A stretch of DNA of 64,000 nt, taken from NCBI GenBank assembly GCA_963663165.1, contig OY760175.1:4768001-4832000 (forward strand), given 5' to 3'. Positions 36,803 through 60,287 of the stretch are shown in pieces. The notes under the pieces are model-generated. The model was not told the origin of the DNA. It made no database searches and saw only the letters and a list, made by a program, of their open reading frames with translations. This DNA is from an uncultured Desulfospira sp. (lineage in GTDB: Bacteria; Desulfobacterota; Desulfobacteria; Desulfobacterales; Desulfobacteraceae). Both the position numbers and the translations under genes were made by a program. The first letter of the stretch is position 1. The number at the start of each line of letters is the position of its first letter.

Positions 36803-36963
36803 AGGGCTTTTAAAGGAGACCGGAAACCGGAGACCGGAAACCGGAGACCGGATGCCAGATTCGGGGATTGATACGCCATCTTGCTCTTAATCATGATCCC
36901 GCTCTTGCTCTAAACAATTTGAGCAAGAGCAGGATTAAGAGCAGGCGCAGGAAAATCAGCCTT

Positions 36964-41025: not shown

Positions 41026-44000
41026 CTATGCCGGCTGAGCCTCCCAGGTGACCTTATGGTCGATCCGGTGTTCTTTATCCAGCCGGGCCAGTTTGACCAT
41101 CTGAAATTCGTTGATTTCAATGCAGACCTTGCCTGCTGAATCAGCCAGGGTCAGGTTATAGGTATTGGTTTCCTCTCCGGAGTCTATTTTCCGGGTGATG
41201 CAGTAATAAGGCGTGTTCTTTTCCGGTACACGGTAAAAATTCATCTCCTCAATTTTAAAGGGCAGCACGGTTCTGGAGGATGTCAGAAACTCCAGGAGTC
41301 CGCCGGTCTGGAACATGGCGTCCACCAGGACCGGTGAGGCCTGGAATTTGGGATTCTTCTCTCCTTTGAAAAATTCAGCCTCACTGCTGTCCTCAACCGT
41401 GGTGACCAGGGTGGTGCCGTCAAAGGAGTTGATATCCGTTATGGTGGCGAACAGCCCGAACATGAACAGCCGGTTGGGGTGGTAGACCAGGGAATCTAAA
41501 TCGCCCTCCCAGGACAGGGGAGAAAATGGCCCGATCTCAATGGTTTTTGAATCCGGCCGGGTTTCTGAAAATTCAAATACCCCCTGGTAATGAAGTTTGG
41601 GGTCCCCCATCACCTGTCCTTTGGGGTTTTTAAATACCGATTCTATCCGGCAGGCCACGGCCTGATCGTCTTTGAGGTCCGCCTGGATCATCAGTTCTTT
41701 GGGGCGGCCCTTGAGCAGCTTGATGCCGTAAGGGATATGAAAGTCCTTAAGCCTGGTGAGATGCTCCCGGCCGCCGGTTAGATTCCGGGCCGCCTCGGCC
41801 ATGGTCTCCACGCCGGTGGAGCCCAGGAACAGGGGCACATCCCCCATGGTATGGTCTTCAAGGAAAATGTCGCGGTTCAGGTCCAGGGTCCTGGCCCAGG
41901 CCTTGCTGTCCGGGGTATCTTTGATGGGGTCATCCAGAAAGGGGAATCCTCCGGGGTCTCCCAGGAGCCCGTCGATGTCAAACTCGTAATCCAGGCCGGA
42001 AAAAACCATTTCAGACTCTGTTCTGTCCAAAAGGTCGGCCATGAAGAATTTGACGCCCTGGTCCATGGGCAGGAATTTGATGCCCCGGTCTTCCAGGACC
42101 TTTTTCACCGTGGAATTGGTAGCCATGCCCACCCCGTCCCAGGCGGTCCAGGCATAGACCTTGTACGCCCTTTGAGGATGAAGCTGTTTTTGCCGCAACA
42201 GGGTTTTGCCCAGGAAATCGTTGGCCGCCGTATAATCGGCCTGGCCCTGGTTGCCGAACCGGGCCGTCACCGAGGAAAAGGTCAGAAAATACTTATAATC
42301 CTTTTCCTGGGCCGCCTTGAGCAGGTTCCGCATGCCTTTGATCTTGACATCCGTGACCAGCTCAAAGGACCAGAGCTCCTTTTTGGGGATAAACTGGCTC
42401 ATCTCCATGCCGGCGGCATGGAAGATCCCGTCGATTTCCGGGCAGGCATCCACGGCTTTTTTCACCGCCTCATAATCGGTGACATCGGTGCAGATGTATT
42501 CCACGCTGATCCCCTGGGACCTGAGATATTCCATATTGTCCACAGCGGTCCTGACCCGGTTGAGCCGGTCCAGGGCCCGCTTGATCTCAACGGGCTTTGA
42601 CTTTGGCATATCCTCCCTGAGCATGGCCATGAGCTCGGCACTGGTGGCCTGTTTGTCCAGGAATTTGGGGTCTGTGGCATAGATATCGTTGATATCCAGG
42701 ATCACCAGGTTGACCTTGTACTCCTGGACCACCTGTTTGATGATCTCATAGGTGATGCCGCCGGCCCCGCCGGTGACCAGGAGGGTGTCGTTGTCATTAA
42801 TGATTCTTTCAGTTTGATCCGGGGCACTGGTTTTCATGGACAATACATACCGCTGCAGGTCCTTGTACCCGGCCTCGCACCTTGGGTCATCAGACAACAG
42901 CTCATTGATGAACAGGTCGCTGATTTCAGTCTTGCTTTTCAAGGGGTGAGGGTAAGAAAAATCCACCACCTTGACCCGGGTATGTGCCATTTCCTTGTTC
43001 ACGGTTTTGAGCAGACCGGAAAGGCCCGCAAACATGGGATAGATGTCGTTGCATTCTTTCATATAGGGAAAGATGACCGAATCAAAGGCCATGGTGGCAA
43101 TGAGGGTGCCGGGCTTGTCCAAAACCTCATAAAGGGCCTGGATCAGGACAAAGGTGGATTTGATGGTGGTGTTCAGTTCCGGGTCTGATGCAAATTCATG
43201 GGTTTCCCGGTCAATATAGAAATCGAGGGGGGCCAGATGGATAAACCCGTCCAGATCCGGATGGCCGGACGCCAGTTCTTTTCCCACTAAGGCGGCGGCC
43301 CCAAGATCGGCAAAGGGCAGGGTCACATCCGGGTTCAGATCGGGATCACCCAGGGTGATTACTTCTCCCCCAAGGCGTTTGACCTGCTCGGCCACCACCT
43401 GTGCCATGCCGTGATGGTCAAGGGAAATCAGGATTTTCTTTTTCTTAAAATTCCGGCTTGACAGTTCGGGCAGGGCCGCCTCATTCACCCGGACCACCAG
43501 CCGTTTGATGGGAGAGGCGGGATCCGGAAGGGTATCGGTTTTGGCCGTCTTTTCATTGGCTGAGGGGGCAGGGCTCGGGCCCGATCCGGTTACCGGGATG
43601 GGCTCTTTACCGGAATGATCCGGTTCTGTGGCCCGGGACTCAATGTAGGCCGACAGCCGGGCAATGGTGTTCAACTCCCTGAGCTTAAGATCGTCGGGTA
43701 CATCAAATCCAAAATGGGTGGCCACTTTGCCGAAAATCTCCACCTGTTTGACCGTGTCAATGCCTAAGTCCGCTTCCAGATCCAGTCCCGGCTCCAGCAT
43801 GTCCACGGCATATCCGGTCTGGGCGGCAATAATTTCTTTTACCGTGTCCACAGGATCATTTCCCGGTACCGGGCCTGAGGTCTGGGGAATGGGTTCCGAA
43901 GCGACTGGGTTTTCCTGTGGCTCTGGTTTCGTTGCAGCTGTTCCCCCCCCGGTCCGGCTCACAATATAGTCGGACAGCCGGGCAATGGTGTTCAGGTCCC

Positions 44001-47000
44001 TGAGTTTGAGGTCATCCGGCACGTCAAACCCGAAACGGGTGGCCACTTTGCCGAAAATTTCCACTTGTTTAACCGTATCAATGCCAAGGTCTGCTTCCAG
44101 GTCCAGATCCGGTTCCAGCATGTCGACCGTATAACCGGTCTGTTCGGCAATCACGGCTTTGACGGTTTCCATGGGGCTTTCCAGGGTTTGAGGAGCCTGG
44201 GTATCCCGGGTTTCGAAAGATTCCGGCTCACGCTTTTCAGAAGGTGCTGCCATGGCAGGCCCAACCTTCTGGCTTACATAAGCGGCCAGCTTGTCAATGG
44301 TGTTCAGGTCTCGAAGCTTAAGGTCATCAGGCACGTCAAAGCCAAACCCTGAGGCAATGGTGCCGAAGATTTCCACCTGTTTGACCGTGTCGATCCCCAA
44401 GTCCGCTTCCAGATCCAGGTCGCCTTCCAGCATATCGGCGGCATACCCGGTCTGCCGGGCAATGATTTCCCGGATTCGTTCCACAGGATCGGGGCCTGTA
44501 ACCGGTTCTATCGATGCCGTTGCCGGTTCCACTGTTTGAATATCCGGTTCTTCAACCGGCACACTGTCATCGCCGGCCACCACGCACAGGGTATTGTCAA
44601 TGACCTTGAGTTCCGGGTGCGTTGAGCCCGTGATCTGCTTTAACCAGTTCTGATAGATCAGGTTGCCTTCCACCGGGTTTTCTTCCACCCGCTTGACAAA
44701 CATAAAGGCAAAATGGGAGCCGAACCCTGCAGACAGATGAAGCCCGTATTCGGCATTGATTTTTTCCCGGCCGGAAAAATTAAGGTTCCTGAACCGGTCC
44801 GGCACCTTTTGAAGGTTGGCAATGGGCGGGGCTTTTCGCTTCTGCAGGGCCTTGACCAGGACCACGTCTTCAATGGCTGCGCCTAAGGTGTGGCCGGTAA
44901 ACCCCTTGGTGTTGGAGATGCAGATGGTGTCCAGGTGGTCGGCAAAGGCTGATTCCAAGGCCGTGACCTCGGCATCGGCGGAGCCGCCCCGGGCCGGGGT
45001 ATAGGTTTCATGGGACATGAACAGCAGCTTGTCGGCATAATCCGTTTTGGTCAGGTTGTTCTGCTTCTCCACCTTGGCGATGAACTTGTTCATCTCCCGG
45101 GCCATGTGGGGCACATCAATGTTATAGGTATGATAGGCCGAGTTGGCGATATGGGTGCCCAGGATCTGGCACTGGCCGTTCATGCCGCGCTTGGCTGCGC
45201 ATTTTTCATCTTCAATGACCAGGCCCACGGCCCCGGCCCCCAGGATGGTGCCGTTCCGGTCCTCGTCAAAGGGTTTGGCCGCTTCAGACACCCGTTTTTT
45301 AATGGTGGCGGCGCCCAGGGCCAGAAAGCCTGAACCCACCCACTGGGCCTGGCGCGGGGAAGTGGCGTTCTCGCCGCCCACCACCAGAACCCGTTTGCAC
45401 CGGCCCACCCGGATCCAGTCCTCGGCAATGCCCATGGCCAGGGTGGTGGAGGCACAGGCTGAAGAGACCAGGGTGTTGGGCCCTTTGGCCTTGATGATCT
45501 GGGCTAAATGGGCCGAGCCTAAGGGGCAGGCATTGGCCAGGAAATTCCGGTCAAATTTATAGGTGGTAAAATCCGTTCTTTTCCGGGCCTTGGCCTTGAA
45601 AAACCATTCGGTAATCTCTTCTTTGACATTAAGATCGTTCACCTTTTCCATGAGGAAATAATAGATCTTTTCAAACTCCTCATAGGGTTTGAGGAACAGT
45701 TTTTCATAAAAGTATTTTTCAAGTTCGGCCATAAGGGTTTCGCCGTTGGGCCACAGGGAGGTGATGATCACCCCGGTTTCCTCCTGCATTTCCTCGGGCA
45801 GGGCAAACCCGTCCGGGATCAGGGCTTTGCCGTCTTTCATTTTTTTATACTGCATGACCAGGGGGATGTTGGCATCTTTAAGGGCCTCAATGCCTGCGGC
45901 AATGCCCAAGGACATGGCAATGTCATACTCTTCTTTGATCCCGTATTCATCGGTCAGGTTAAAGTATCCGAGCTGGCCGGCCAGATGGATCACGTCTTCT
46001 GTCTTGGTAATCTGGACAAACCGGGCATTGCCGTCGGGTTCTTTGAACAGCTTGGTAATGTTCTTGTCCGTGATCCTGGCCTGGTCTTCCTGGGACAGGG
46101 ATTCAATAAAATTTTTGCCGTTGAGAATGGCGTCAAAGTTGTCCTTGGCAAAGACGTGCCGGGCCTTTCCGGGAAGCCCTACGGATACCCCTGAAATCAA
46201 GATGCGCCGGGTGTTGAAATCGTACCGTTTGATGGCGTCAATGGCGGCATCCCGTTTCTTGCGCTGAAATTCTTTGTACAGGATTTTGTCAATCAGGCTC
46301 TGGTTGTCCTGTTTAAAGGATTCAAAATCTTCTGAAATGTCGGCCCCGGCCATATCGGCAAATGACAGCTCGTTGCTGACGTTTGCCTGTTCCGGTTCAT
46401 CCGGAAAAGGGTCAACGCCTGGCCGGTCAGGAATCTCTCGGACCGGCCGGGATTTGAACAGGGCGTTCAGGGAGATCAGGTACTGGCGGCAGGCTTCAAA
46501 GGATTCGACCTCGCCTTTTTTGGGGTCCACGGACACGGTGGTGCCGTATTCGCCGATATTGATATACTTGAGCAGGTTGACCAGGAGCCTGGACGGCCCG
46601 ATTTCAATAAAATGGGTTTTGCCCGAGGCATACACATGTTCAATGGACTTGATAAACTCCACCGGCGAGACAATCTGCCGGGCCAGCAGGTCCTTGATTT
46701 CGGTCACCTGTTTGGGATAGGGGGCGGCCAGGGTATTGGAGATGATTCTGCCGTATCCGGCCCGTTTAAAGGTTAAGGTATCCAGGTACTGGCGAAGCTT
46801 TTCCGACGCATCGGCCAGCAGCGGGGTATGGAAGGCCCCGGTGAGGTTAAGCTTCTTGAACATCACCTTTTCTTCTTTCAGGAAGTCGCAGAATTTTTCA
46901 ATGCTTTGGGCCTTTCCCGATACAGCGGTCTGTTTTTCACTGTTTTTATTGGTGATATAGATATCCGATACAAAGGATTTTCGGATCAGTTTTTCGGTTT

Positions 47001-50000
47001 TCTTTTCATTTTCAAAGACCACCATGATTTTGCCGGGCACTTTTAAGGTGGATTCATGCATGAGATCAGATCGTTTAATAACCAGGCGCATGGCATCCTC
47101 AAATCCCAGGATGCCCGAGCAGAAAAGGGCGGTATATTCCCCCACACTGTGGCCGATAAAATAATCCGGAGAAAACCCTTCAAGGGCCAGGCGGCTGCAA
47201 ACGGCGGCCGATGACAGGAATACCGCGGCCTGGGTATTCTGAGTGGAATTTAAGGACTCATCTTCTCCAAACATCAGATCCAGGAGGGAATAGCCCCGCT
47301 GTTCTTTGAAGATGGCCTCACCTTTTTCCATGACCTCCCGGATATGGGCGTCTGATTCAAACAGGGTCTTCATCATGCCCGGATGCTGGGCGCCCTGGCC
47401 GGAGAGCAGGGCCACGATGCGCTGCTTTTTGCCCCCGGGGCCGGCAGACCAGGCCGTGTCTGAAAGGACCCGGTCATCTTCGGGAACTGCCGTAAAGGAA
47501 ACATCCACTACATTATCCACTTTGTGTTGTTCCGGGACCAGGCGGGCCGGCAAGGCTCCCATGATCAAATGGGCATGGTTGCCGCCAATGCCGTTGACGT
47601 TGCTGGCAAACCGCAGGGGCCGGCCCGGTCTGGCATTGGTGAGTTCAAGGGCGGGTTTCAGGATGGCGCACTCTTTGATAATGGAGTGTTCCCGCTCAAA
47701 GTTAAAGTCCGGCAGGATTTTCCCCTTGGCATTCATGAGCATGAGCTTGGCCATGGCCACGGCCGGGTTGGCCGCCTTGAAATATCCGAACTGGGGCTTG
47801 ACGTTGCCGCAGTGCATGGGATGGGAAAAGCAGGCCTGGGTGACCTGTTTTTCAATCATGTCCCCGAAGATATTGGAGAACGCGAACAGATCCAGGTGGT
47901 CCACTTCAGATTTTCGGATGCCGCTTCGCCTGTAGGCCTGGTTGATGGCCGACACAAAGGTGTGTTCCGACGGGGCCAGCAGGTGATCCGGCACCGAAGA
48001 TTTGACCGCACACTCGTTGATTTCCCCCAGGATTTTCATGCCGGATTCGGTGGCCTTTTTATAGGTGGTCAGCACATGAATGGCCGCCCCTTCGCCCATG
48101 ACATACCCGTCTGCCCGGTCGTCAAAAAAGTTGCAGTCCCCGGATGAGAGCAGGCCTAAGCGTTTAAAGGCCATGAGAACCGCCGGATACAGGTTGCAGT
48201 CCACGCCCCCGGCCAGGCAGAAGTCCATGTTTTTTTGTTTTAAGTCCCTGGCCGCATTCCGGATGGCAATCACGGCCGAGGCGCAGGAGGCGTCCACCAC
48301 GTAGTTGGCCCCGTTCAGGCCAAAGTAATTGGTGATCCGGCCCGAGATGATATTGGACAACAGTCCCGGGGTGGTGTCTTCGTTGTTTTCGGGGATGGTG
48401 GACCGGATAACATCTACCAGCTGCCCGGCCACTTTATCCAGAACAGCGTCATCCACATCGGCGGTCTGTTTAATGATGTTGGCCAGCATCAGCTTTCTGA
48501 CCCTTAAGATGTTTTTGCTCTGCCGCTCCCCCGGTATGGTCCCGAGGATCACCCCGGTCCGGGCGGCGGCCTGTTCCTGTTTCAGCAGTCCTGATGATTC
48601 CAGGGCCTCGGAGGCGGCGGTCAGGCCGAACAGCTGGCCCCGTTCAACGGATTTGACCATGGTGGGGGGCATCCGGTATTTCAGGTTGTTGAACTGAAAG
48701 TCTTTGACAATCCCGGCTTTCAGGTGGGGCAGATGGTAATGGGATTTTTTATCCAGCCGGCTGTAGGCGTCATTGTCAAAGTGTTCACCCGGGATCTGAG
48801 ACAGCTGCTTTTCTCCGGATACCAGCTTTTCCCAGAATTCTTCGCTGTTTTTTGCGCCGGGTAGAAACACCCCTAAACCGGCCACAACAATCCGGTCGTC
48901 GTTAAAATCATAAGACAGGTCCCTGAAAAAATCCCGGGGCACTGGAACGTAGGACGGGGTCATCTCTTCTAAAGCCACGTGGTAGTTGATTCCCCCGAAC
49001 CCATAGGAAGACACGGCCGCTTTCCGGGATTGGCCGTCCCGGGGTTCCCAGGGCTGCTGATCTTTAACAATATAAAGGGAGGACCCGGACAGGTCATGGC
49101 TTGAAGACAGGGTTTCAAAATTTCCATTGGGGGGCAGCACCCCTTTTTGGACGGCCAGCAGGGCCTTGAGCAGGCCCGCCGACCCGGCACACCCGAGCAG
49201 ATGGCCGATCTGGGATTTAATGGAAGAGACCCCGGCCCTGGCCCCGGTGTATCCGGCGGTCAGGGTTTCAAGCTCGGCCTGGTCCCCGATAATGGTAGCG
49301 GTGCCGTGGGCCTCAATGAATTCAATCTGATCGGGGTGAAAGCCTTTTCTGGTGTTCTCATAGCAGCGCTGGATACTTAAAAGCTGCCCCTTGGGATTCG
49401 GGGCCGCAATGGCCTTGCCCTTGCCGTCGGAACTGGACCCGATGCCGTTGATGATGCCGAAAATCTGGTTGTTATCCCTGAGGGCATCTTTCATCCGTTT
49501 GAGGACGAACACCACCGACCCTTCGCCGAGAACAAACCCGTCGGCCCGCTGGTCAAAGGGATGTGATCCCGTGGCGGACAGGGTCCCCATTTTGGCAAAC
49601 CCAATAAAGGATTCCGGTGCCAGGTGGGTGTTGACCCCGCCCACGATGACCTGGTCAACTTCCCCTGACAGCAGCTCTCCGGCCGCCGCATCCAGGGCCG
49701 TGATTGATGAGGCGCAGGCCGCATCCACAATATAATTGACACCTCTGATGCCCAGATGCCGGGCAATCCTGGAGGCTTCAATGTTCAGCAACATGCCGTG
49801 AACCGGGTCATACCCCTTGTTTTCGCCTTCGATCCCATCCAGAAGGGCCTGGTTGATTTTTTCTTTTTCTTCGGGGTCAAGGGCCTGATAAGCCTCGGTC
49901 TTTTCCAGCATGGAAACCAGTTGAGGATACCAGTACTTGAGCTGAAGGTCATTGCCCAGTTCATTGGACAGGCAGGTGGCAATGATGACGGAGGTCCGGG

Positions 50001-52434
50001 AGGGGTCATCACAGGAAAGCTGGTCGTTCTCATTTAAAAGCCCGGCACTTTCCACGGCTTTGTAGGCGGTTTGAAGCACCATTTTCTGGCTTCTGGACAG
50101 TTTGTTTTCTTTATCCTCATCGTATCCGAACCGCTTTGCGTCAAACTGGAAATCTTCTATAATCCCGGCCAGGCGGGTATAGGTTCTGTCTTCGGCCGAC
50201 TTGTCGCCGGACAGGTACAGATCGGCGTTAAACCGGGATTCAGGCATCTCTTTGATGGCATAGGTTTTATTTAGAATATTGTCCCAGAGCTGATCCGGGG
50301 TCTGGGCGCCCGGCAGGGTACATCCAACCCCCACCACGGCAATTTCATCGTTGATCCGGTTTCTCGGGCTTGAAAATACCTCCAGTTGGTTAAGGTTTTC
50401 CCGCAGCCGGTGTTTGAACTGAAACATCATGGTATGGATATCTTTAATGGCGGTGACATCCTTGAAAAAGGCTAAGCTGTCCCCCACCAGAAAATTTCCT
50501 TTTTCCCGGTGTTCTGGCCCCTCATACCAGGTATAATGTTCCTCTCCGGGGTTTTTAAAGTCAGGCAAAAACCCTTTGGCCCCGATGAGCAGGGAGCCGA
50601 TGTTTCTTTTTTCAAAGGATTTTTTACGTTGATCCAGGGGTTTTTTCTCCCGGATCATGGCGGCCTCATGTTCCATCATCATTTTGGCAAACCCGGTGGG
50701 GGCGGTCCTTGAGGCAAGGCCTAAGGTTTTGCCGATGACAACGGTTTCGTTCTTTTCAATGACAATGTCCTGGTAGAGTTTCTGGATGCTCTTTGTATCG
50801 ACAATTTCTTTTGTGAACAGGTAGGCGGTCCCGGCCTGAATACCGATTTTAGCGCCTTTGGCCGCCAGAAAAGCGGTCAGTCCTGAAATAAAAAACGACG
50901 CAAAACAGGTGGAAATTCCGCCGGCAAACACCAGATAAATATCGGACAGGTTCCGTTCCGAGTTAACCAGCCTTGAGATGGCCGCTTCCCACAGCACCAT
51001 GGAGGAAAGGCTTCCCACATGGCCCCCGGCCTCGGCCCCTTCAAAGATAAACCTGCGGCAGCCGTTTTCCAGAGCATTGGCCATCATGGACACCGAAGGC
51101 GTGTGCAGGTAAGTCTTTGTCCCGGCCTTTTCAAGTTCGAGCACCTGGGAGGGAACTCCCCCGGCAAACAGGGCATAAGGCACCTTGTACTGTTTGACCA
51201 TGTCCAGATGGATGTTGACCTGGGGGTTAAAGGCCTCGATGCCCACCAGGCCCGCCCCGAAATTGTCTAAAGTCTGGGCCCCTTTTTTAAGCATGTCATC
51301 GGCGAGATCCTTTGGCAGGCTGCCCACGGCAAAAAACGGCAGGGCGCCCTGTTCCAGGACCTTTGAGGCAAATTGTGCGTTGTCCGTGATGTTGGCCATG
51401 GGACCTTGAATTAAGGGCAGGCGGGTGTTCTGATCTGCTGCAAAATTTGAATCCGGAACAATGGGATCAAACTGATCAATAAAGTTGAGGTTGTCGCCGA
51501 TGGTCGTAAAAAAAGAGTGGATCATCTGGCTCAGGTCTTTGGATTCCCTGGCAAAATCCTTGGCAAAGACCGCGTCCTGGCCCAGGTAAAATAAAGACTG
51601 GATAAACGCTGCATCCGGGTCATCCAGGGCGGTCATTTTTTCAGATAACAGATCGTACAGCCCGGAAAGGCCGTCAGGATTTTCGGCCAGGAGAACCGCC
51701 TCCTGTTTCAAGTCTTTTACGATTTTGGTCCCCAGCTTGGCAAACACCCGGAACCGTTCCTGGTCTTCAAAGCTGATTTCCGTGGAATCGCCTTCATCCA
51801 GGGATTCCAGAAGGGCTTTAAAATTTTCAGACACCGGGGCCTGGTCGGAAAGCAGCACCTGGGAATCCATGACAAATCCGGATACGCCGGCAGCCAGCAT
51901 GCCGGCCCCGGTATATTTGCCTACCCCGCCGTGGATAAATACGGGCAGGGACATCTGTTTTAAGTACCATTGCATGAGGATAAAGGATGAATACCGGGAC
52001 ACGTTTCCGGCCGCCTCATTTCCTTTCAGAATGAGGCCGGACGGGTCGGCCTTAAGGATCTCATCTGTCAGATCAATATCTTTGATTTCAAGAATAAGCC
52101 GGGTATCCCCAAAATTTGAAAACGCCTGGGCCATATCTTCTGCCTGGGCCTGTTTTGAAAAGGGAACCACCATCAGGTCCAGGTTGTTCAGATTTTTATT
52201 TTTGATAGCGGCAATCAGGGTTTCATCCCACCGGGACAGCCGGACACCAAAGCAAAAGGTCTCTTTGGACAACAGCAGTACCTTATGCAGGATATCATCC
52301 CGGCTTAAAAATTCGGTATCAAATACGGGCAGTGCCCCTGACGCATAGACGGAGTGAAAATACCGGATATCAAACACCTTGACCGGTGTGTAAATCATAA
52401 GGGGGAGTTTTGAGTTCAGTATTCTTGTAATCAT
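41026..52434 (-). CDS. Giant single-polypeptide type I PKS/FAS (Pfa-like secondary lipid synthase), ~3802 aa: FabK-like x2, KS, degenerate KS, AT, KS, ACP x3, KR, DH
   Basis: EGAEAGGHVG; DAACASS/EAHGT/GHLL; DASCASA without His motifs; GQGAQ/GHSVG/GAFH; SACAST/SHET/GHTL; three LGIDTVKQ; TGGAGGI/GQADY; DHTMG/DAMFQ. ATG 52434 follows GGAG. Confidence 0.9.
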   Translation of the reverse strand: MITRILNSKLPLMIYTPVKVFDIRYFHSVYASGALPVFDTEFLSRDDILHKVLLLSKETFCFGVRLSRWDETLIAAIKNKNLNNLDLMVVPFSKQAQAEDMAQAFSNFGDTRLILEIKDIDLTDEILKADPSGLILKGNEAAGNVSRYSSFILMQWYLKQMSLPVFIHGGVGKYTGAGMLAAGVSGFVMDSQVLLSDQAPVSENFKALLESLDEGDSTEISFEDQERFRVFAKLGTKIVKDLKQEAVLLAENPDGLSGLYDLLSEKMTALDDPDAAFIQSLFYLGQDAVFAKDFARESKDLSQMIHSFFTTIGDNLNFIDQFDPIVPDSNFAADQNTRLPLIQGPMANITDNAQFASKVLEQGALPFFAVGSLPKDLADDMLKKGAQTLDNFGAGLVGIEAFNPQVNIHLDMVKQYKVPYALFAGGVPSQVLELEKAGTKTYLHTPSVSMMANALENGCRRFIFEGAEAGGHVGSLSSMVLWEAAISRLVNSERNLSDIYLVFAGGISTCFASFFISGLTAFLAAKGAKIGIQAGTAYLFTKEIVDTKSIQKLYQDIVIEKNETVVIGKTLGLASRTAPTGFAKMMMEHEAAMIREKKPLDQRKKSFEKRNIGSLLIGAKGFLPDFKNPGEEHYTWYEGPEHREKGNFLVGDSLAFFKDVTAIKDIHTMMFQFKHRLRENLNQLEVFSSPRNRINDEIAVVGVGCTLPGAQTPDQLWDNILNKTYAIKEMPESRFNADLYLSGDKSAEDRTYTRLAGIIEDFQFDAKRFGYDEDKENKLSRSQKMVLQTAYKAVESAGLLNENDQLSCDDPSRTSVIIATCLSNELGNDLQLKYWYPQLVSMLEKTEAYQALDPEEKEKINQALLDGIEGENKGYDPVHGMLLNIEASRIARHLGIRGVNYIVDAACASSITALDAAAGELLSGEVDQVIVGGVNTHLAPESFIGFAKMGTLSATGSHPFDQRADGFVLGEGSVVFVLKRMKDALRDNNQIFGIINGIGSSSDGKGKAIAAPNPKGQLLSIQRCYENTRKGFHPDQIEFIEAHGTATIIGDQAELETLTAGYTGARAGVSSIKSQIGHLLGCAGSAGLLKALLAVQKGVLPPNGNFETLSSSHDLSGSSLYIVKDQQPWEPRDGQSRKAAVSSYGFGGINYHVALEEMTPSYVPVPRDFFRDLSYDFNDDRIVVAGLGVFLPGAKNSEEFWEKLVSGEKQLSQIPGEHFDNDAYSRLDKKSHYHLPHLKAGIVKDFQFNNLKYRMPPTMVKSVERGQLFGLTAASEALESSGLLKQEQAAARTGVILGTIPGERQSKNILRVRKLMLANIIKQTADVDDAVLDKVAGQLVDVIRSTIPENNEDTTPGLLSNIISGRITNYFGLNGANYVVDASCASAVIAIRNAARDLKQKNMDFCLAGGVDCNLYPAVLMAFKRLGLLSSGDCNFFDDRADGYVMGEGAAIHVLTTYKKATESGMKILGEINECAVKSSVPDHLLAPSEHTFVSAINQAYRRSGIRKSEVDHLDLFAFSNIFGDMIEKQVTQACFSHPMHCGNVKPQFGYFKAANPAVAMAKLMLMNAKGKILPDFNFEREHSIIKECAILKPALELTNARPGRPLRFASNVNGIGGNHAHLIMGALPARLVPEQHKVDNVVDVSFTAVPEDDRVLSDTAWSAGPGGKKQRIVALLSGQGAQHPGMMKTLFESDAHIREVMEKGEAIFKEQRGYSLLDLMFGEDESLNSTQNTQAAVFLSSAAVCSRLALEGFSPDYFIGHSVGEYTALFCSGILGFEDAMRLVIKRSDLMHESTLKVPGKIMVVFENEKKTEKLIRKSFVSDIYITNKNSEKQTAVSGKAQSIEKFCDFLKEEKVMFKKLNLTGAFHTPLLADASEKLRQYLDTLTFKRAGYGRIISNTLAAPYPKQVTEIKDLLARQIVSPVEFIKSIEHVYASGKTHFIEIGPSRLLVNLLKYINIGEYGTTVSVDPKKGEVESFEACRQYLISLNALFKSRPVREIPDRPGVDPFPDEPEQANVSNELSFADMAGADISEDFESFKQDNQSLIDKILYKEFQRKKRDAAIDAIKRYDFNTRRILISGVSVGLPGKARHVFAKDNFDAILNGKNFIESLSQEDQARITDKNITKLFKEPDGNARFVQITKTEDVIHLAGQLGYFNLTDEYGIKEEYDIAMSLGIAAGIEALKDANIPLVMQYKKMKDGKALIPDGFALPEEMQEETGVIITSLWPNGETLMAELEKYFYEKLFLKPYEEFEKIYYFLMEKVNDLNVKEEITEWFFKAKARKRTDFTTYKFDRNFLANACPLGSAHLAQIIKAKGPNTLVSSACASTTLAMGIAEDWIRVGRCKRVLVVGGENATSPRQAQWVGSGFLALGAATIKKRVSEAAKPFDEDRNGTILGAGAVGLVIEDEKCAAKRGMNGQCQILGTHIANSAYHTYNIDVPHMAREMNKFIAKVEKQNNLTKTDYADKLLFMSHETYTPARGGSADAEVTALESAFADHLDTICISNTKGFTGHTLGAAIEDVVLVKALQKRKAPPIANLQKVPDRFRNLNFSGREKINAEYGLHLSAGFGSHFAFMFVKRVEENPVEGNLIYQNWLKQITGSTHPELKVIDNTLCVVAGDDSVPVEEPDIQTVEPATASIEPVTGPDPVERIREIIARQTGYAADMLEGDLDLEADLGIDTVKQVEIFGTIASGFGFDVPDDLKLRDLNTIDKLAAYVSQKVGPAMAAPSEKREPESFETRDTQAPQTLESPMETVKAVIAEQTGYTVDMLEPDLDLEADLGIDTVKQVEIFGKVATRFGFDVPDDLKLRDLNTIARLSDYIVSRTGGGTAATKPEPQENPVASEPIPQTSGPVPGNDPVDTVKEIIAAQTGYAVDMLEPGLDLEADLGIDTVKQVEIFGKVATHFGFDVPDDLKLRELNTIARLSAYIESRATEPDHSGKEPIPVTGSGPSPAPSANEKTAKTDTLPDPASPIKRLVVRVNEAALPELSSRNFKKKKILISLDHHGMAQVVAEQVKRLGGEVITLGDPDLNPDVTLPFADLGAAALVGKELASGHPDLDGFIHLAPLDFYIDRETHEFASDPELNTTIKSTFVLIQALYEVLDKPGTLIATMAFDSVIFPYMKECNDIYPMFAGLSGLLKTVNKEMAHTRVKVVDFSYPHPLKSKTEISDLFINELLSDDPRCEAGYKDLQRYVLSMKTSAPDQTERIINDNDTLLVTGGAGGITYEIIKQVVQEYKVNLVILDINDIYATDPKFLDKQATSAELMAMLREDMPKSKPVEIKRALDRLNRVRTAVDNMEYLRSQGISVEYICTDVTDYEAVKKAVDACPEIDGIFHAAGMEMSQFIPKKELWSFELVTDVKIKGMRNLLKAAQEKDYKYFLTFSSVTARFGNQGQADYTAANDFLGKTLLRQKQLHPQRAYKVYAWTAWDGVGMATNSTVKKVLEDRGIKFLPMDQGVKFFMADLLDRTESEMVFSGLDYEFDIDGLLGDPGGFPFLDDPIKDTPDSKAWARTLDLNRDIFLEDHTMGDVPLFLGSTGVETMAEAARNLTGGREHLTRLKDFHIPYGIKLLKGRPKELMIQADLKDDQAVACRIESVFKNPKGQVMGDPKLHYQGVFEFSETRPDSKTIEIGPFSPLSWEGDLDSLVYHPNRLFMFGLFATITDINSFDGTTLVTTVEDSSEAEFFKGEKNPKFQASPVLVDAMFQTGGLLEFLTSSRTVLPFKIEEMNFYRVPEKNTPYYCITRKIDSGEETNTYNLTLADSAGKVCIEINEFQMVKLARLDKEHRIDHKVTWEAQPA

Positions 52435-52492
52435 GTAAACGTCTCCAAATGGTTTTGGGTTCAGGTCTTGTGACCTCAATTCCCTTTTGGCT

Positions 52493-52537
52493 ATCAAGGA
52501 ACGTGCCAGAGGCGGTGTGTTTTATAACCAGTTGATA
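52493..52537 (-). promoter_or_regulatory. Sigma-54-type promoter plus IHF site for the megasynthase
   Basis: CTGGCACGTTCCTTGAT (52509-52493; -12 element is GA, not GC) and TATCAACTGGTTA (52537-52525), an exact WATCAA-N4-TTR match. Confidence 0.6.
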
Positions 52538-52631
52538 TTATATTGATTTATAGAAAAGGAAGTTTTCTTCATTAAAACCATCGACAATCGGCCTTGCATT
52601 TTATGCACATGGCATGTACAAAATTACCCAA

Positions 52632-52740
52632 TTGGCTTTTGGCTCTTAGCAATTAGCAATTAGCTTTTAGCTGCTTGCAGTTGGCTAACAGCTAACAGCT
52701 AACGGCTAACGGCTAACAGCTAACAGCCAACAGCCAACAA
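52632..52740. repeat. Inverted heptamer tandem repeats (ttagcnn)n / (rgctaac)n
   Basis: About 6 left units and 8 right units; a second copy lies at 58499-58570. Confidence 0.8.
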
Positions 52741-52751
52741 AGGAAAATTTA

Positions 52752-54224
52752 ATGGCAAAATTCAGTCTGGATTCAGAAGAAAAGATATTTTTCAGGACGG
52801 TTTATCATGCGGCCTTTGCTAATCCTTTCAGTGAGTTAAGGGAAAAGCTGGACCGGAAAATTGCCGGCCTTTTTCCCTCCAACAACCCCAAACAGATCAC
52901 CGACATGTGTATCCGGGAGGTAGACCAGCGCTTAAGAAAGCTGGAGTCCCAGGGCCGGGGAGACCTTAGGCGGTATTCAGAAAAAGACCAGGAAACCCTT
53001 CGTGTGGTCTATTTGTTTGATATCTTTCATAAGTTCAGGGATGATTTTGACCGGCTTATCAATGACCAGATCAAAGCAGGCGATGCCCCGGTAAAAGTGG
53101 ACTTTGCCCAAAACGCCCGGCAGATGCTCATGGACCGTGGGTTTACGACCGAACAGTTCAGGCATTATTTTGCCCTGTCCTTTCAGCTCAGGCGGGCATT
53201 TTACTTTATTTCCCAGACCCTGGTAGGGGAAAGCCCCTGCATGCGGAATTTAAAAAAACACCTCTGGTACAATGTCTTTACCTGCAACATGCTCTTATAC
53301 GACCAGCAGCTTTGGAACCGGATGGAGGACTTTTCCACCCTGCTCTTGGGCGAAACCGGCACCGGAAAAGGAACCGCCGCCAGAGCAATCGGCCGAAGCG
53401 GGTTTATCCCCTTTGACGAAAAAAAGTCCAGTTTCACCCAGAGCTTCACCCAGGCCTTTTCTTCGCTCAACCTGTCTCAATACCCTGAAACCTTGCTGGA
53501 ATCTGAGCTTTTCGGCCACACAAAAGGCTCGTTTACCGGGGCGGTGGACGACTATAAAGGGGTGTTTGCCCTGTGCAGTCCCCACGGGTCAATCCTCTTA
53601 GACGAAATTGGCGAAATCCCCAACCATGTCCAGATCAAGCTGTTGCGGGTCCTTCAGGAAAGAAGCTTTTCGCCGGTGGGGGCCCACACGTCCTACCGGT
53701 TCCAGGGCCGGGTCATTGCCGCCACCAACCGGCCCAGAAAAGATATCATGTCCGGTAAGGTGTTCCGGGATGATTTTTACTACCGGCTCTGTTCAGACAT
53801 CATTGAAGTGCCTCCCTTGGCCGCCCGGATCAAAGAAAAGCCATCGGAACTGGACGATCTTCTGGAATTCACTATTTTCCGTATGACCGGCGTAAAATCA
53901 GAAGAAATATTGGTTAAAGTCAAAAGAATTATTGACCGTAATCTGGGAAAAGACTATCAATGGCCTGGGAACGTCAGGGAGCTGGAACAATGCGTTAGAA
54001 GCATTCTGCTCAGACGAAGTTACAGGGGAAAGGAAAGTTCCGGGACCCGGGAATTTTCCCTGGACCGGATTTTGGCCCGGGGTATCGAAGACCGGACCAT
54101 CGGCGTGCCGGATCTGGTCTCCGGATACTGCAGGCTCCTGTATGACACCCATGGCACCTATGAAAAAGTAGCCCGGGTAACGGGCCTGGACAGGCGGACA
54201 GTAAAAAAATATATTTTAGGATAG
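52752..54224 (+). CDS. Sigma-54-dependent enhancer-binding activator with an unrecognised N-terminal domain
   Basis: GETGTGKG, ESELFGHTKGSFTGA, LLDEIGE, IAATN, FRDDFYYRL, WPGNVREL, C-terminal HTH. Confidence 0.92.
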   Translation: MAKFSLDSEEKIFFRTVYHAAFANPFSELREKLDRKIAGLFPSNNPKQITDMCIREVDQRLRKLESQGRGDLRRYSEKDQETLRVVYLFDIFHKFRDDFDRLINDQIKAGDAPVKVDFAQNARQMLMDRGFTTEQFRHYFALSFQLRRAFYFISQTLVGESPCMRNLKKHLWYNVFTCNMLLYDQQLWNRMEDFSTLLLGETGTGKGTAARAIGRSGFIPFDEKKSSFTQSFTQAFSSLNLSQYPETLLESELFGHTKGSFTGAVDDYKGVFALCSPHGSILLDEIGEIPNHVQIKLLRVLQERSFSPVGAHTSYRFQGRVIAATNRPRKDIMSGKVFRDDFYYRLCSDIIEVPPLAARIKEKPSELDDLLEFTIFRMTGVKSEEILVKVKRIIDRNLGKDYQWPGNVRELEQCVRSILLRRSYRGKESSGTREFSLDRILARGIEDRTIGVPDLVSGYCRLLYDTHGTYEKVARVTGLDRRTVKKYILG

Positions 54225-54228
54225 ACTC

Positions 54229-55122
54229 ATGTTTTTCTTTCTTCCCCCCCTCATCAGAGGTTGTGCTTCCATTATTATTTATTTTTTGAACACCCTTGTT
54301 CTGACCGTCCCGTTGATCCTGTGTTCTCTTTTAAAATTTATCATTCCGGCTCATGGGTTCGTTGTCTGGATGGATAAATTTCTGATCGGTATTGCCACCC
54401 TCTGGATCGGCATCAATTCAAAAACCACGGACCTTTTCTGCAAAATTCACTGGGACGTCCACGGGCTTGAAAATTTAAAGAAAAAGGAATGGTACCTGGT
54501 GTTGTCCAACCACCAGTCCTGGGTGGATATTCTGGTGCTTCAAAAAATTTTGAACCGGAAAATCCCCATGCTCAAATTTTTCTTAAAAAAAGAACTGATC
54601 TGGGTTCCGTTCCTGGGGCTTGCCTGGTGGGCCCTGGATTTTCCCTTTATGAAACGGTATTCAAAATCTTTTCTGGCCAAACATCCCCACCTTAAGGGAA
54701 AAGACCTGGAAAGCACCAAAAAAGCCTGTCAAAAATTCAAGCATACCCCGGTGTCCATCATGAACTTTGTTGAGGGAACACGGTTTTCTCCCGACAAACA
54801 ACAGGCCCAGAGGGCCGAGTTCAACCACCTGCTCAAGCCCAGGGCCGGGGGAATCGCCTTTGTTTTGGCCTCCATGGGCGACTACCTTCACAAGATCATT
54901 GATGTGACCATTGTCTATCCGGAAAAAGTCCCGAGTTTCTGGGAGTTCATTTCAGGAAAAACCCGGCGCATCGTGGTTTACTTCAACGTGCTGGACGTGA
55001 CCCGGACCCTGAAGGGGGATTATTTTAACGACCCTGAATTCAAACAGGGCTTCTGCGAGTGGCTCAACGAGATGTGGCAGGAAAAAGACCGGAAAATATC
55101 CGGTCTTATTGCCGGGGGATGA
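54229..55122 (+). CDS. YihG/PlsC-family 1-acyl-sn-glycerol-3-phosphate acyltransferase
   Basis: NHQSWVD, KFFLKKEL, WWALDFPFMKR, FVEGTRF, LLKPRAGG. Confidence 0.88.
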   Translation: MFFFLPPLIRGCASIIIYFLNTLVLTVPLILCSLLKFIIPAHGFVVWMDKFLIGIATLWIGINSKTTDLFCKIHWDVHGLENLKKKEWYLVLSNHQSWVDILVLQKILNRKIPMLKFFLKKELIWVPFLGLAWWALDFPFMKRYSKSFLAKHPHLKGKDLESTKKACQKFKHTPVSIMNFVEGTRFSPDKQQAQRAEFNHLLKPRAGGIAFVLASMGDYLHKIIDVTIVYPEKVPSFWEFISGKTRRIVVYFNVLDVTRTLKGDYFNDPEFKQGFCEWLNEMWQEKDRKISGLIAGG

Positions 55123-55530: not shown

Positions 55531-56217
55531 ATGAAACTTAGCCGTATTTTTTTGATTCTTTTAATCAGTTGCTGTCTTACCATTCTGGTTGACTCGGCAA
55601 ATGCTGCCATTACCAACGGCGGTTTTGAGGACACGATTGATTTTAACGGATGGACCTATGATTTAGGCTCATCAGGGGCAAGCATAGTAATCCCTACTGA
55701 TTCTTCGGAGTCGCCCCACACCGGCTTTCAGTATGCAACGATGTATGGAAGCAATTATTATGATCCAGCCATGCTTTACCAGGTTGTACAAAATCCGGAC
55801 TATGATTCGTCCGGAACCAGCATGGACGTCTCTTTTTCGGCCTATGGGGATAGCGGTGAAGGCTGGATCGGCCTGTATATCTGGTACTCCAATGATGACC
55901 AGGTCCCTGATTCCAACACGGTATGGACAGCCGCACCCGGATCTGGAACGGTGGATTTTGCAACTGGTTTAGACGGTAATGTTGCGTTATATCAAAGTGA
56001 TTTTGATGGTGACTACTGGGAGCATATCAGTTATTCAGCTACATGGAGTTTTGAAGCCAAATGGTTCAAAATCGGCATCGCCTTAGCTGCGAATAATTGT
56101 GACACATGGGTAGACACCGTATCTTTCAGTCCGTCGGCTGCAGTTCCGGTTCCTTCCGGAATTATTTTGATGGTATTCGGCTTGCTCTGCCTGGTCCGGA
56201 TCAAAAGAGCAGAATAA
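55531..56217 (+). CDS. Exported protein with a PEP-CTERM-like (VPxP) sorting signal
   Basis: Signal peptide ending ANA, NGGFE motif, C-terminal VPVPSGIILMVFGLLCLVRIKR; AGGAGG RBS. Confidence 0.8.
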   Translation: MKLSRIFLILLISCCLTILVDSANAAITNGGFEDTIDFNGWTYDLGSSGASIVIPTDSSESPHTGFQYATMYGSNYYDPAMLYQVVQNPDYDSSGTSMDVSFSAYGDSGEGWIGLYIWYSNDDQVPDSNTVWTAAPGSGTVDFATGLDGNVALYQSDFDGDYWEHISYSATWSFEAKWFKIGIALAANNCDTWVDTVSFSPSAAVPVPSGIILMVFGLLCLVRIKRAE

Positions 56218-58498: not shown

Positions 58499-58570
58499 CG
58501 GTTAGCGATTAGGCGTCAGCCGTTGGTCATGTTTTACAGCTAATAGCTAACGGCTAAAAGCTAACAGCTT
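58499..58570. repeat. Inverted heptamer repeats (gctaac family)
   Basis: gttagcgattaggcgtcagccgttgg...cagctaatagctaacggctaaaagctaacagct. Confidence 0.6.
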
Positions 58571-58571
58571 A

Positions 58572-60287
58572 CTAGATGATTGCGGCCAGTACCCCTGCGG
58601 CAAGAAACGAGGCCTCAATGAGAAATTCGTACTGGCCCCCGGATAAAAATTTTTTCTTTTGGGATATCCTTATCAGTAAAATCATAAAAAGGGGAATCAA
58701 CGCAAGCAAAAAAGCCGCCCCCGGCAGTATATGTAACATACTGCCCAGGGTCATGAGAAGGATATCCAGTATCAACACCCCGAAAATCAGGTTAAAACTT
58801 TTTTCTTCACCCAGCAGAATGGGCAGTGTTTCCCTGCCGCTGATCCGGTCGCCCTGTATGGCCAGGATGTCAAAAAAAGCGGCCCTTGAAAATGCAAGCC
58901 CCGTGGAAAATAGAAAAGCGGCCGGCAGCACCAGAAGCTTTCCCCCGTGGGCAACGGCCGGCAGAATACTGGTCACAACACCCCAGGCAAGCGCAATTAA
59001 AATGGTCTTGGAGCCGGGAATGTCCCTGATCCGGCTTTTCTTTTTATTCCAGAACATTAAAAGGGAAATTTTGGCCTTATTGTAGGCCAGCCCGAGAAGG
59101 GTCATGAGCAGCAGGATAAAAAAGGATAAAATCCCGGTGGAATAGGCCACATAAAGTCCGGCCCCACCGGTACAAAGGGCCATGGCCCTTAGGAAAAAAA
59201 GGTTTTTTCTGTAGAATTCCGCCCGACCTGGATTATTATATGTATCTGATTTTATGGTAAATATATTATTTAATACCTGCATGGACAACACATACAGCAT
59301 GGCGATCACCGAGTGCTTAAGGGAATGGGAAAAGCCCTGAATGGCCGAGCAGGCATAGGTCAGGCTCGCGGCCCCGGCCGCTAACAGCAGGTTGGTTTTG
59401 ATTAAAAAATCCCTTGCCTGGGCAAGTGCCCCTAAAACCGGCTTTCTTTTTTGAAAGGCATTTTCAATCTGAACGCAGGTACAGGTAATGATCCAGTTAG
59501 GGGTTGAGGCGCCGGCGGTAACCGCGATGGATTTGGCTTCGGCCAGCATGTTAAAATCCAGTTCTGCGGCATCCTCGATATGGACGGCCCGTGTGCCGGT
59601 TTCGGTGGCCACCTGGGCAAGCCGTTTGGTGTTGCCGCTTTGCCGGCCGCCCACAACGATGATGGCATCATTCTTTTGGGCCAGATCCCGGACCTCGCTC
59701 TGCCGTTTTTCCGTGGACCCGCAGATGGTATCAAAGATTTCATAATGGGGGGCGTGGGTCTTGCACCAGTCCTTGATCTGCTGGAAAAAAGCGGTGTTCT
59801 GGGTGGTCTGGGCCACCACCACGGCTTTTTCATATTTTGGCAGGGCTTCAAGTTGTGCCAGGGATGTGACAGGCCGGCCATTTGGCCCGGCATACCCGAG
59901 AAGGCCGATGACTTCCGGGTGTTTTTCGTCCCCCACGATAATGGCGCTGTACCCTTTTTTGGCATGGGTTTCCAGGATGACCTGAACCCGGATCACCCGG
60001 GGGCAGGTGGCGTTCAGAACGGTGAACCCGGCCTGTTTGAGGGCCTTTTGATCTTCTGGCGGGACCCCGTGGGCCCGGATCAGGACAATTCCCCGGCCTT
60101 TTTCCGGAATGGTGGAGATCTGGTGAATTCCTTTTCCCTCAAGCATTTCCAGGACCTGGGGGTTGTGGATCAGGGGGCCGTATGTAAAAATAGGGCCTTC
60201 AAACGAGTTGGACGCATCCAGAACCATGTCAACGGCCCTGCGGACCCCCATGCAGAACCCGGCCGTTTTTGCAATGGTGATTTTCAT
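58572..60287 (-). CDS. ispH: 4-hydroxy-3-methylbut-2-enyl diphosphate reductase fused to a UbiA-like membrane domain
   Basis: AGFCMGVRRA, LIHN, RAHG, ATCP, HPE, QTT, TIC, SGNT, TAGASTP; then ~290 aa with multiple TM helices and DILAIQGD. Confidence 0.92.
   Translation of the reverse strand: MKITIAKTAGFCMGVRRAVDMVLDASNSFEGPIFTYGPLIHNPQVLEMLEGKGIHQISTIPEKGRGIVLIRAHGVPPEDQKALKQAGFTVLNATCPRVIRVQVILETHAKKGYSAIIVGDEKHPEVIGLLGYAGPNGRPVTSLAQLEALPKYEKAVVVAQTTQNTAFFQQIKDWCKTHAPHYEIFDTICGSTEKRQSEVRDLAQKNDAIIVVGGRQSGNTKRLAQVATETGTRAVHIEDAAELDFNMLAEAKSIAVTAGASTPNWIITCTCVQIENAFQKRKPVLGALAQARDFLIKTNLLLAAGAASLTYACSAIQGFSHSLKHSVIAMLYVLSMQVLNNIFTIKSDTYNNPGRAEFYRKNLFFLRAMALCTGGAGLYVAYSTGILSFFILLLMTLLGLAYNKAKISLLMFWNKKKSRIRDIPGSKTILIALAWGVVTSILPAVAHGGKLLVLPAAFLFSTGLAFSRAAFFDILAIQGDRISGRETLPILLGEEKSFNLIFGVLILDILLMTLGSMLHILPGAAFLLALIPLFMILLIRISQKKKFLSGGQYEFLIEASFLAAGVLAAII

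Follow-up and report, generated by a model that had tools for sequence, protein, structure and literature searches.

The closest described relatives of the gene analysed here are the secondary lipid synthases of Shulse and Allen, whose 2011 paper, in its accessible part, reports a Type S enzyme from one genome, that of Desulfobacterium autotrophicum HRM2 (YP_002604438), with the order enoyl reductase (ER), ketosynthase (KS), chain-length factor (CLF), acyltransferase (AT), KS, three acyl carrier proteins (ACPs) and ketoreductase (KR), ER-KS-CLF-AT-KS-ACP3-KR, together with a phosphopantetheinyl transferase (PPTase). The same portion suggests that Type S is the core fatty acid synthase (FAS) of HRM2, on the ground that fabA/fabZ are missing, mentions fatty acid uptake as a possibility, and describes Type R synthases of Koribacter, Solibacter, Elusimicrobium and Roseiflexus, which have a KS-AT-KS-ACPn-KR core, a downstream PPTase and sometimes a carboxylase (PMC3098273). 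Here we analyse a 64,000-nucleotide stretch from an uncultured Desulfospira sp. (assembly GCA_963663165.1, contig OY760175.1, positions 4,768,001 to 4,832,000 of the forward strand; hereafter the window, whose own numbering is used unless another is given), in which one long minus-strand gene encodes what by its sequence is a Type S secondary lipid synthase, a type known since 2011 but uncharacterised. Attachment of phosphopantetheine to serine is treated as universal, and exchange of that serine for threonine is a standard way to inactivate an ACP; all three ACPs of this synthase carry threonine, and an invariant threonine at the cofactor site of a synthase type is apparently unreported. At somewhat better than even chances, we lean towards the view that the enzyme would be the main one-chain (type I) FAS of its family, replacing missing type II enzymes, with threonine carriers activated by a dedicated, unlinked PPTase.

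Threonine occupies the cofactor site of the carrier domains

The three carrier domains (ACP1, 44290..44505; ACP2, 43978..44193; ACP3, 43657..43872; all on the minus strand) read LGIDTVKQ, and their threonine, encoded by ACG in each case (codons 44386-44388, 44074-44076 and 43753-43755), aligns with the serine of the DSL motif in this genome's AcpP and with the serine of solved ACPs. In a four-helix model of ACP1 (mean predicted local distance difference test, pLDDT, of 74) this residue, T40, begins helix II, the place where a holo-ACP would have its serine and where three of the three ACPs here have threonine. The residue is equally constant in relatives: threonine stands in 353 of the 354 ACP motifs of the 120 best homologues, and the D-T-V-K-Q motif is invariant. 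A scan for a pattern allowing either serine or threonine, run over 4 of the 64 parts of a species-genome collection, returned 123 loci (with ~2400 stretches estimated) from Acidobacteria, Chloroflexi, Elusimicrobia, Actinobacteria, Myxococcota, Spirochaetes, Thermoplasmata and Heimdallarchaeum, and 291 of their 294 pattern matches have threonine. The three serine loci show no KS3, the third ketosynthase domain of the synthase, and all three are cut by contig ends; the 64 loci with a strong KS3 hold 196 ACP domains, 188 with threonine, 2 with serine and 6 cut or degenerate. The threonine lies in three different codon contexts and is present family-wide, and we therefore rejected a sequencing error or local mutation as its origin.

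Our search of the open-access literature found no report of threonine phosphopantetheinylation or of a characterised Type S or Type R enzyme, and the accessible parts of PMC3250452 and PMC3910706 hold nothing on threonine. Phosphopantetheine is probably carried on the threonine of the synthase ACPs.

A conserved PPTase accompanies the synthase

The PPTase expected alongside a Type S synthase is present in unlinked form: the only one detected in this genome (G000:1839354) lies ~3 Mb from the synthase and is the orthologue of PPTases that follow the synthase in other loci. A preliminary description of the locus had called it self-contained, which does not hold, given this distance and a carboxyltransferase at ~1.6 Mb. 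To place the gene among relatives we used 61 genomes of the order, 37 from the same family (including this one, a single contig, 96.7% complete) and 24 from other families, and 20 related loci picked for long contigs from 39 carrier genomes. The PPTase stands directly after the synthase in 5 of these 20 loci and in 2 of 3 added later, and a PPTase of the same clade occurs in 31 of the 36 other same-family genomes; in the other families it is present in 5/5 synthase carriers as against 0/19 non-carriers. Most genomes of the family encode an additional PPTase of a different type. This genome was searched with profiles for two such types known from relatives, and no further PPTase was found. Across the wider synthase family a co-oriented PPTase is seen in 48 of 75 loci and is fused to the synthase in five, with the catalytic His, Asp, Glu and Lys conserved at 94-99%. 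In three of five archaeal genomes all ACP domains found have threonine, and the sole PPTase match lies in the same reading frame.

A structural model of the PPTase with CoA, Mg and ACP1 scored 0.88, compared with 0.01 for the best control, and in a calibration made with ligand-free pairs the mark was reached by 51 of 78 solved pairs and 2 of 108 mismatched ones. At least 96% of contacts are shared between repeated runs, the partner pLDDT is at least 86, and the interface includes ACP residues 39-41 and PPTase Glu150/Glu188. PPTase-carrier complexes have already been solved; the model supports binding, may mirror likeness to those complexes, and is blind to threonine versus serine. In a PPTase tree whose bootstrap is not settled, the Type S PPTases share a starred branch that leaves out 11 other PPTases of the family, and the threonine-linked PPTases were not recovered as one clade; nor was any PPTase residue found that explains threonine use. 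The simplest reading of the co-occurrence is that the PPTase clade of synthase carriers would modify threonine.

The synthase-bearing family lacks fabF and fabZ over the curated cut-offs

The synthase KS3 was found in 34 of the 36 other same-family genomes, with one synthase each, the two misses being 80-81% complete. Among the 24 genomes of other families, 5 have it as part of a long frame (55-61% identity), and four further matches there are free FabF-like genes. Genes scoring over the curated cut-offs show the reverse distribution, with fabF and fabZ each in 0/37 family genomes vs 19/24 of other families and fabD in 4/37 vs 19/24. Where relatives have fabZ, fabF and fabD this genome has short gaps (lpxD-lpxA, 98 nt; acpP-rpiB, 10 nt; hemA-dksA, 41 nt), and its KS, AT and FabA/Z domains are confined to the synthase gene and the separate PfaA and PfaC genes; the host lacks fabA/fabZ, as HRM2 does. 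A FabH-like gene and a free acpP are retained. Among carriers outside the family, all three of fabF, fabZ and fabD are kept in 1 of 5, compared with 11 of 19 non-carriers.

Because the type II genes are missing, bulk fatty acids are a likelier product than the special acyl chain put forward in the preliminary description, and the role of primary FAS of this family, taken alone, is likely.

Two further gene groups of this genome bear on lipid synthesis. The Pfa system lies at two distant sites (G000:C1:461365-469155 and 814583-823420), PfaA having C-terminal FabA-type dehydratase (DH) domains and pfaC being followed by ole-like genes. A carboxyltransferase gene paired with an OadA-like/biotin fusion gene (G000:C1 1596012-1600061) is a candidate malonyl-CoA source; in the relative G048 the orthologous pair comes after the synthase and PPTase in the same orientation.

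Domain composition and start of the synthase gene

The synthase gene lies in a single open frame, 41026..52497 (−). The coding sequence itself is 41026..52434 (−), 3802 aa from ATG in the order ER'-ER-KS1-KS2-AT-KS3-ACP x3-KR-DH, with 59% identity at 100% cover to HRM2 protein P0091 (accession YP_002604438 itself was not matched). Homologues start at the equivalent of ATG 52434, which is preceded by a GGAGA ribosome-binding site (52442..52446, −), and the upstream TTG at 52497 falls within the −12 element of a sigma-54 promoter; on these two grounds, the homologous starts and the promoter overlap, the true start is likely ATG 52434 rather than TTG 52497. The preliminary extent of the gene was thus right as to the single frame and needed correction at its start. 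A Pfam search gives three KS, AT, three ACP, KR, polyketide synthase (PKS)-type DH and NMO/FabK domains, and no thioesterase is among the 17 Pfam families scoring E≤0.01; Pfam and motif inspection bear out the earlier claims of one open reading frame holding a full reductive-elongation set, with its domain order and coordinates, and of a missing thioesterase.

Of 1674 hits, the 120 best include 107 proteins longer than 3500 aa, and conservation was read from an alignment of these. The FabK-like ER pair that had been described consists, as claimed, of two copies, of which the first (51472..52434, −) reads GNEAAG without the His of the GxEAGGH motif, a loss also seen in the homologue variants shown, and is likely a structural partner; the second (50383..51432, −) has EAGGH intact in 107/107 homologues and is the predicted enoyl reductase. 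KS1, of PKS/PfaA type (approximately 48940..50349, −), and the FabF-like KS3 (44640..46215, −) keep their Cys-His-His triads in 107/107. KS2 (approximately 47520..48900, −) likewise keeps its Cys in 107/107, mostly has Phe and Tyr in place of the His pair, and is predicted to be non-condensing. The AT (46510..47406, −; GHSVG and GAFH motifs) is likely a malonyl transacylase, and its serine motif is intact in all 107. The KR catalytic domain (42139..42786, −) has GGAGG and YTAAN, and the PKS-type DH (41080..41943, −) its His and Asp motifs. KS3 is the most conserved domain (80% mean identity) and its closest structures are FabF, as those of the ER are FabK; the tandem ACPs vary from 1 to 8 copies among homologues. 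The preliminary description had counted the three ACPs here but had not remarked on their threonine. The whole elongation cycle is thus present in one chain with intact catalytic motifs, as in a primary type I FAS.

A sigma-54 activator faces the synthase

Divergent from the synthase lies a predicted sigma-54 activator gene (52752..54224, +, 490 aa) with Walker A/B, an arginine-finger motif, a GSFTGA loop and a C-terminal helix-turn-helix-like end; its N-terminal domain belongs to no known family and matches solely unnamed clusters in Atlas. Related activators read GAFTG[A] in 18/18, and rpoN is present in this genome. The same divergent arrangement of activator and synthase is found in 18 of the 20 related loci and in 2 of 3 further ones.

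Upstream of the synthase a predicted sigma-54-type promoter (TGGCACG-N4-TTGAT, 52493..52508, −) has GA rather than GC at −12. Sites scoring at least 9 of 11 within 450 nt of the synthase start occur in 16 of 21 loci, compared with 128 of 3000 random windows, and the −12 element is GA or GT in 18 of the 21 best sites. A dyad, TGTACA-N5-TGTGCA (52604..52620), 112 bp upstream of the promoter, is the predicted activator site. Its consensus, TGTACA-N5-TGTACA, derived from the same 20 loci, is found 101-118 bp upstream in 15 of them (controls, 166/6300 and 11/618) and recurs in 8 of 13 held-out loci, including 3/3 synthases and 2/2 type II FAS (FAS II)-like operons. Among the 253 sigma-54-like sites of this genome, only the synthase promoter has a dyad scoring at least 10. 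The conserved divergent activator, promoter and enhancer agree with the sigma-54 control proposed earlier.

The activator family is present in 34 of 36 family genomes, 5/5 outside carriers and 6/19 non-carriers. In two of these non-carriers it faces a type II fatty-acid-like operon and in others VIT-vWA genes. The atypical FAS II-like operons L202 (G041) and L203 (G051) comprise FabD, a short-chain dehydrogenase/reductase-type enoyl reductase, FabA/Z, FabF, AcpS, FabH and an acyltransferase, and lie behind the same activator, promoter and dyad. A second activator copy in this genome (G000:C1 ~3134500-3136000; L212:7548-9043) is split into two frames, is intact in G001, and is divergent from VIT-vWA, membrane protein and MFS-acyltransferase genes.

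The acyltransferase and neighbouring genes

The activator gene is followed after 4 nt by that of a YihG-family lysophosphatidic acid acyltransferase (54229..55122, +, 297 aa; NF058536 over cut-off, 435 vs 260 bits), an arrangement correctly given in the preliminary description. Its link to the synthase is loose: YihG is adjacent in 12 of 20 related loci and occurs in 49 of 61 genomes, among them 10 of the 19 from other families that lack the synthase, and this genome has eight further PF01553 matches. Of the three-gene neighbourhood, the activator is the more constant part (divergent in 18/20) and the acyltransferase the less constant one (adjacent in 12/20), and the proposal of a dedicated acyltransferase is not sustained; YihG is more plausibly a consumer of the synthase product than its dedicated release enzyme. 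PlsY was not found in this genome. PlsX was found in none of the 61 genomes, carriers or not, and is uninformative; in its stead this genome has a PlsB-like protein of 881 aa.

No convincing terminator was found downstream of the synthase. Heptamer arrays stand between genes (GCTAACA x8 at 52684-52739, just before the activator start; ACAGCTA x5 at 58536-58569; GGAGACC x5 at 36815-36852), and repeats of this kind seem common in this genome. A 228-aa frame at 55531-56217 (+) matches no Pfam family, begins like a signal peptide and ends in a PEP-CTERM-like tail (VPVPSG...); in the relative G001 its place is taken by a different protein of this kind. A fusion of IspH (LytB) with a UbiA-like membrane domain (571 aa, 58572-60287, −) is likewise found close to the locus in 3 of 20 relatives.

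Mechanism and alternative explanations

In the mechanism that we favour, the PPTase would place phosphopantetheine on the threonine of the ACPs, the AT would load malonyl, KS1 and KS3 would condense, perhaps short and long chains respectively, and KR, DH and the FabK-like ER would carry out the reduction part of the cycle. Phospholipid would be assembled by PlsB/PlsC-type enzymes, which include YihG, and the divergent activator would switch the synthase on through the enhancer and sigma-54.

Two groups of observations weigh against this proposal, the first concerning the role of the synthase. Chains would have to be released without a thioesterase, by transacylation to CoA or free AcpP and possibly via the Cys-only KS2, which is a guess. 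The accessible text of PMC7791843 derives the 10-methylpalmitate of the family from monounsaturated C16, and the synthase has no FabA-type isomerase although the family uses such precursors. FabF-like genes below cut-off occur in 21 of 36 family genomes and fabZ-like ones in 4 of 36, and carriers outside the family keep fabF in 3/5 and fabZ in 4/5. Carriers of related synthases, mostly of other phyla, keep fabZ over cut-off in 19 of 50 genomes (of 80 first intended, reached through the pattern scan), and because of this the Type R relatives in the wider family are often secondary. This genome moreover has a canonical Pfa synthase with serine ACPs. PfaA, with FabA-type DH domains, occurs in 55 of 61 genomes whether or not they have FAS II, and the PfaA transacylase can stand in for FabD in other bacteria, as stated in the available part of PMC8174602. 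Bulk fatty acids might thus come from the Pfa synthase or from uptake, leaving the synthase to make a special lipid, induced through sigma-54 and put into the membrane by YihG, a model that would also suit an activator family facing auxiliary FAS II-like operons and VIT-vWA genes and a YihG gene adjoining in many of the loci. We regard it as unlikely, since PfaA is found both in genomes that have FAS II and in genomes that lack it and, unlike the synthase, does not follow the loss of FAS II. It was also not found at threshold in 4 genomes of the family, of which two are 96-98% complete. The genes after pfaC, which we take to be oleA/B/C-like, point to olefin synthesis, and YihG is not restricted to synthase carriers.

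The second group concerns the threonine. According to the accessible portion of PMC3340395, E. coli ACP(S36T) cannot be post-translationally modified. The homologues and loci counted above include kin and are not independent, and the pattern scan demanded VKQ, so that serine branches with another motif would escape it. The single PPTase of this genome must also serve the serine carriers AcpP, PfaA and a nonribosomal peptide synthetase and is thus not threonine-exclusive, and the remaining two of the five archaeal genomes comprise one with an extra serine carrier and one mixing serine and threonine. The E. coli S36T result, the serine substrates of the single PPTase, the retained free acpP with its DSL motif, and an archaeal protein combining two serine ACPs with one threonine ACP would fit a synthase that is the main FAS but whose threonine ACPs stay unmodified, acting as docking modules with the chemistry on free serine AcpP or CoA, or holding the chain on another prosthetic group or as a threonine ester. 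This is more doubtful still, as the residue is invariant threonine and shows neither drift nor alanine, the ACPs form tandem repeats of variable number like those of working synthases, and threonine-only synthases fused to the PPTase occur in genomes in which we detected no further carrier. That the organism lives on scavenged fatty acids and uses the synthase for chain editing or as a back-up, which an inducible sigma-54 promoter and the uptake mentioned in the accessible part of the 2011 paper (PMC3098273) would suit, is highly improbable in view of the family-wide conservation of all catalytic motifs for de novo synthesis and the carboxyltransferase linkage in G048.

Significance and comparison with known systems

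Beyond this family, we consider it moderately probable that a widespread PPTase class attaches 4'-phosphopantetheine to threonine, that megasynthases with threonine ACPs occur in thousands of bacterial and archaeal genomes (Desulfobacterales, Chloroflexi, Acidobacteria, Elusimicrobia, Myxococcota, Thermoplasmata and an Asgard archaeon), and that in one family of sulfate reducers they have replaced type II synthesis as a further independent bacterial FAS I. A natural pair of threonine ACP and PPTase would, if true, be a new form of phosphopantetheine modification and possibly an orthogonal carrier-labelling pair, and annotation rules that call threonine ACPs dead would be wrong for a large family. 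The 2011 suggestion made for one genome becomes a testable, family-wide claim on the membrane and biomarker fatty acids of abundant marine sulfate reducers, and the archaeal loci offer candidate ACP-based fatty acid synthases.

The corynebacterial/mycobacterial and fungal FAS I are likewise one-chain main sources of fatty acids with a flavin ER, thioesterase-free release and a PPTase of their own; they differ in domain order and ancestry and have a single serine ACP and a single KS. Pfa synthases (PfaA-E) share with the present enzyme similar tandem ACPs, a KS-CLF-like pair, a flavin TIM-barrel ER and the lack of a thioesterase. In contrast, they are split over several genes and have serine ACPs (LGIDSIKR in this genome's PfaA) and a FabA-type DH, and the synthase here is set apart from canonical Pfa by threonine in 3/3 ACPs, PF07977 solely in the separate Pfa genes and an ER that is nearer to FabK than to PfaD, matching FabK and not TIGR02814. 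E. coli YihG is, in the accessible part of PMC7277886, a free-standing sn-2 acyltransferase for cis-vaccenoyl chains and not a synthase release domain.

Loci of Type R layout share threonine ACPs and two intact KS triads with the synthase but lack the ER pair and KS2, both present here, which places this enzyme outside Type R; they are often flanked by acyl-CoA dehydrogenase/electron transfer flavoprotein, PfaD or carboxylase genes and often coexist with fabZ. In Ca. Heimdallarchaeum aukensis (L036/G072) we noted a two-gene synthase, ER-ER-KS-AT plus KS-AT-KS3-ACP3-KR-DH-PPTase, with ACPs in the order Ser-Thr-Ser, followed by a duplicated hydrolase and PPTase, possibly an ACP-based fatty acid synthase in an Asgard archaeon. 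The closest match remains Type S of HRM2, which has the same domain order, an incomplete FAS II and a protein with three threonine ACPs. The accessible part of the 2011 description lists no DH and mentions neither threonine nor regulation, and the PPTase, adjacent to the synthase in HRM2, is unlinked here.

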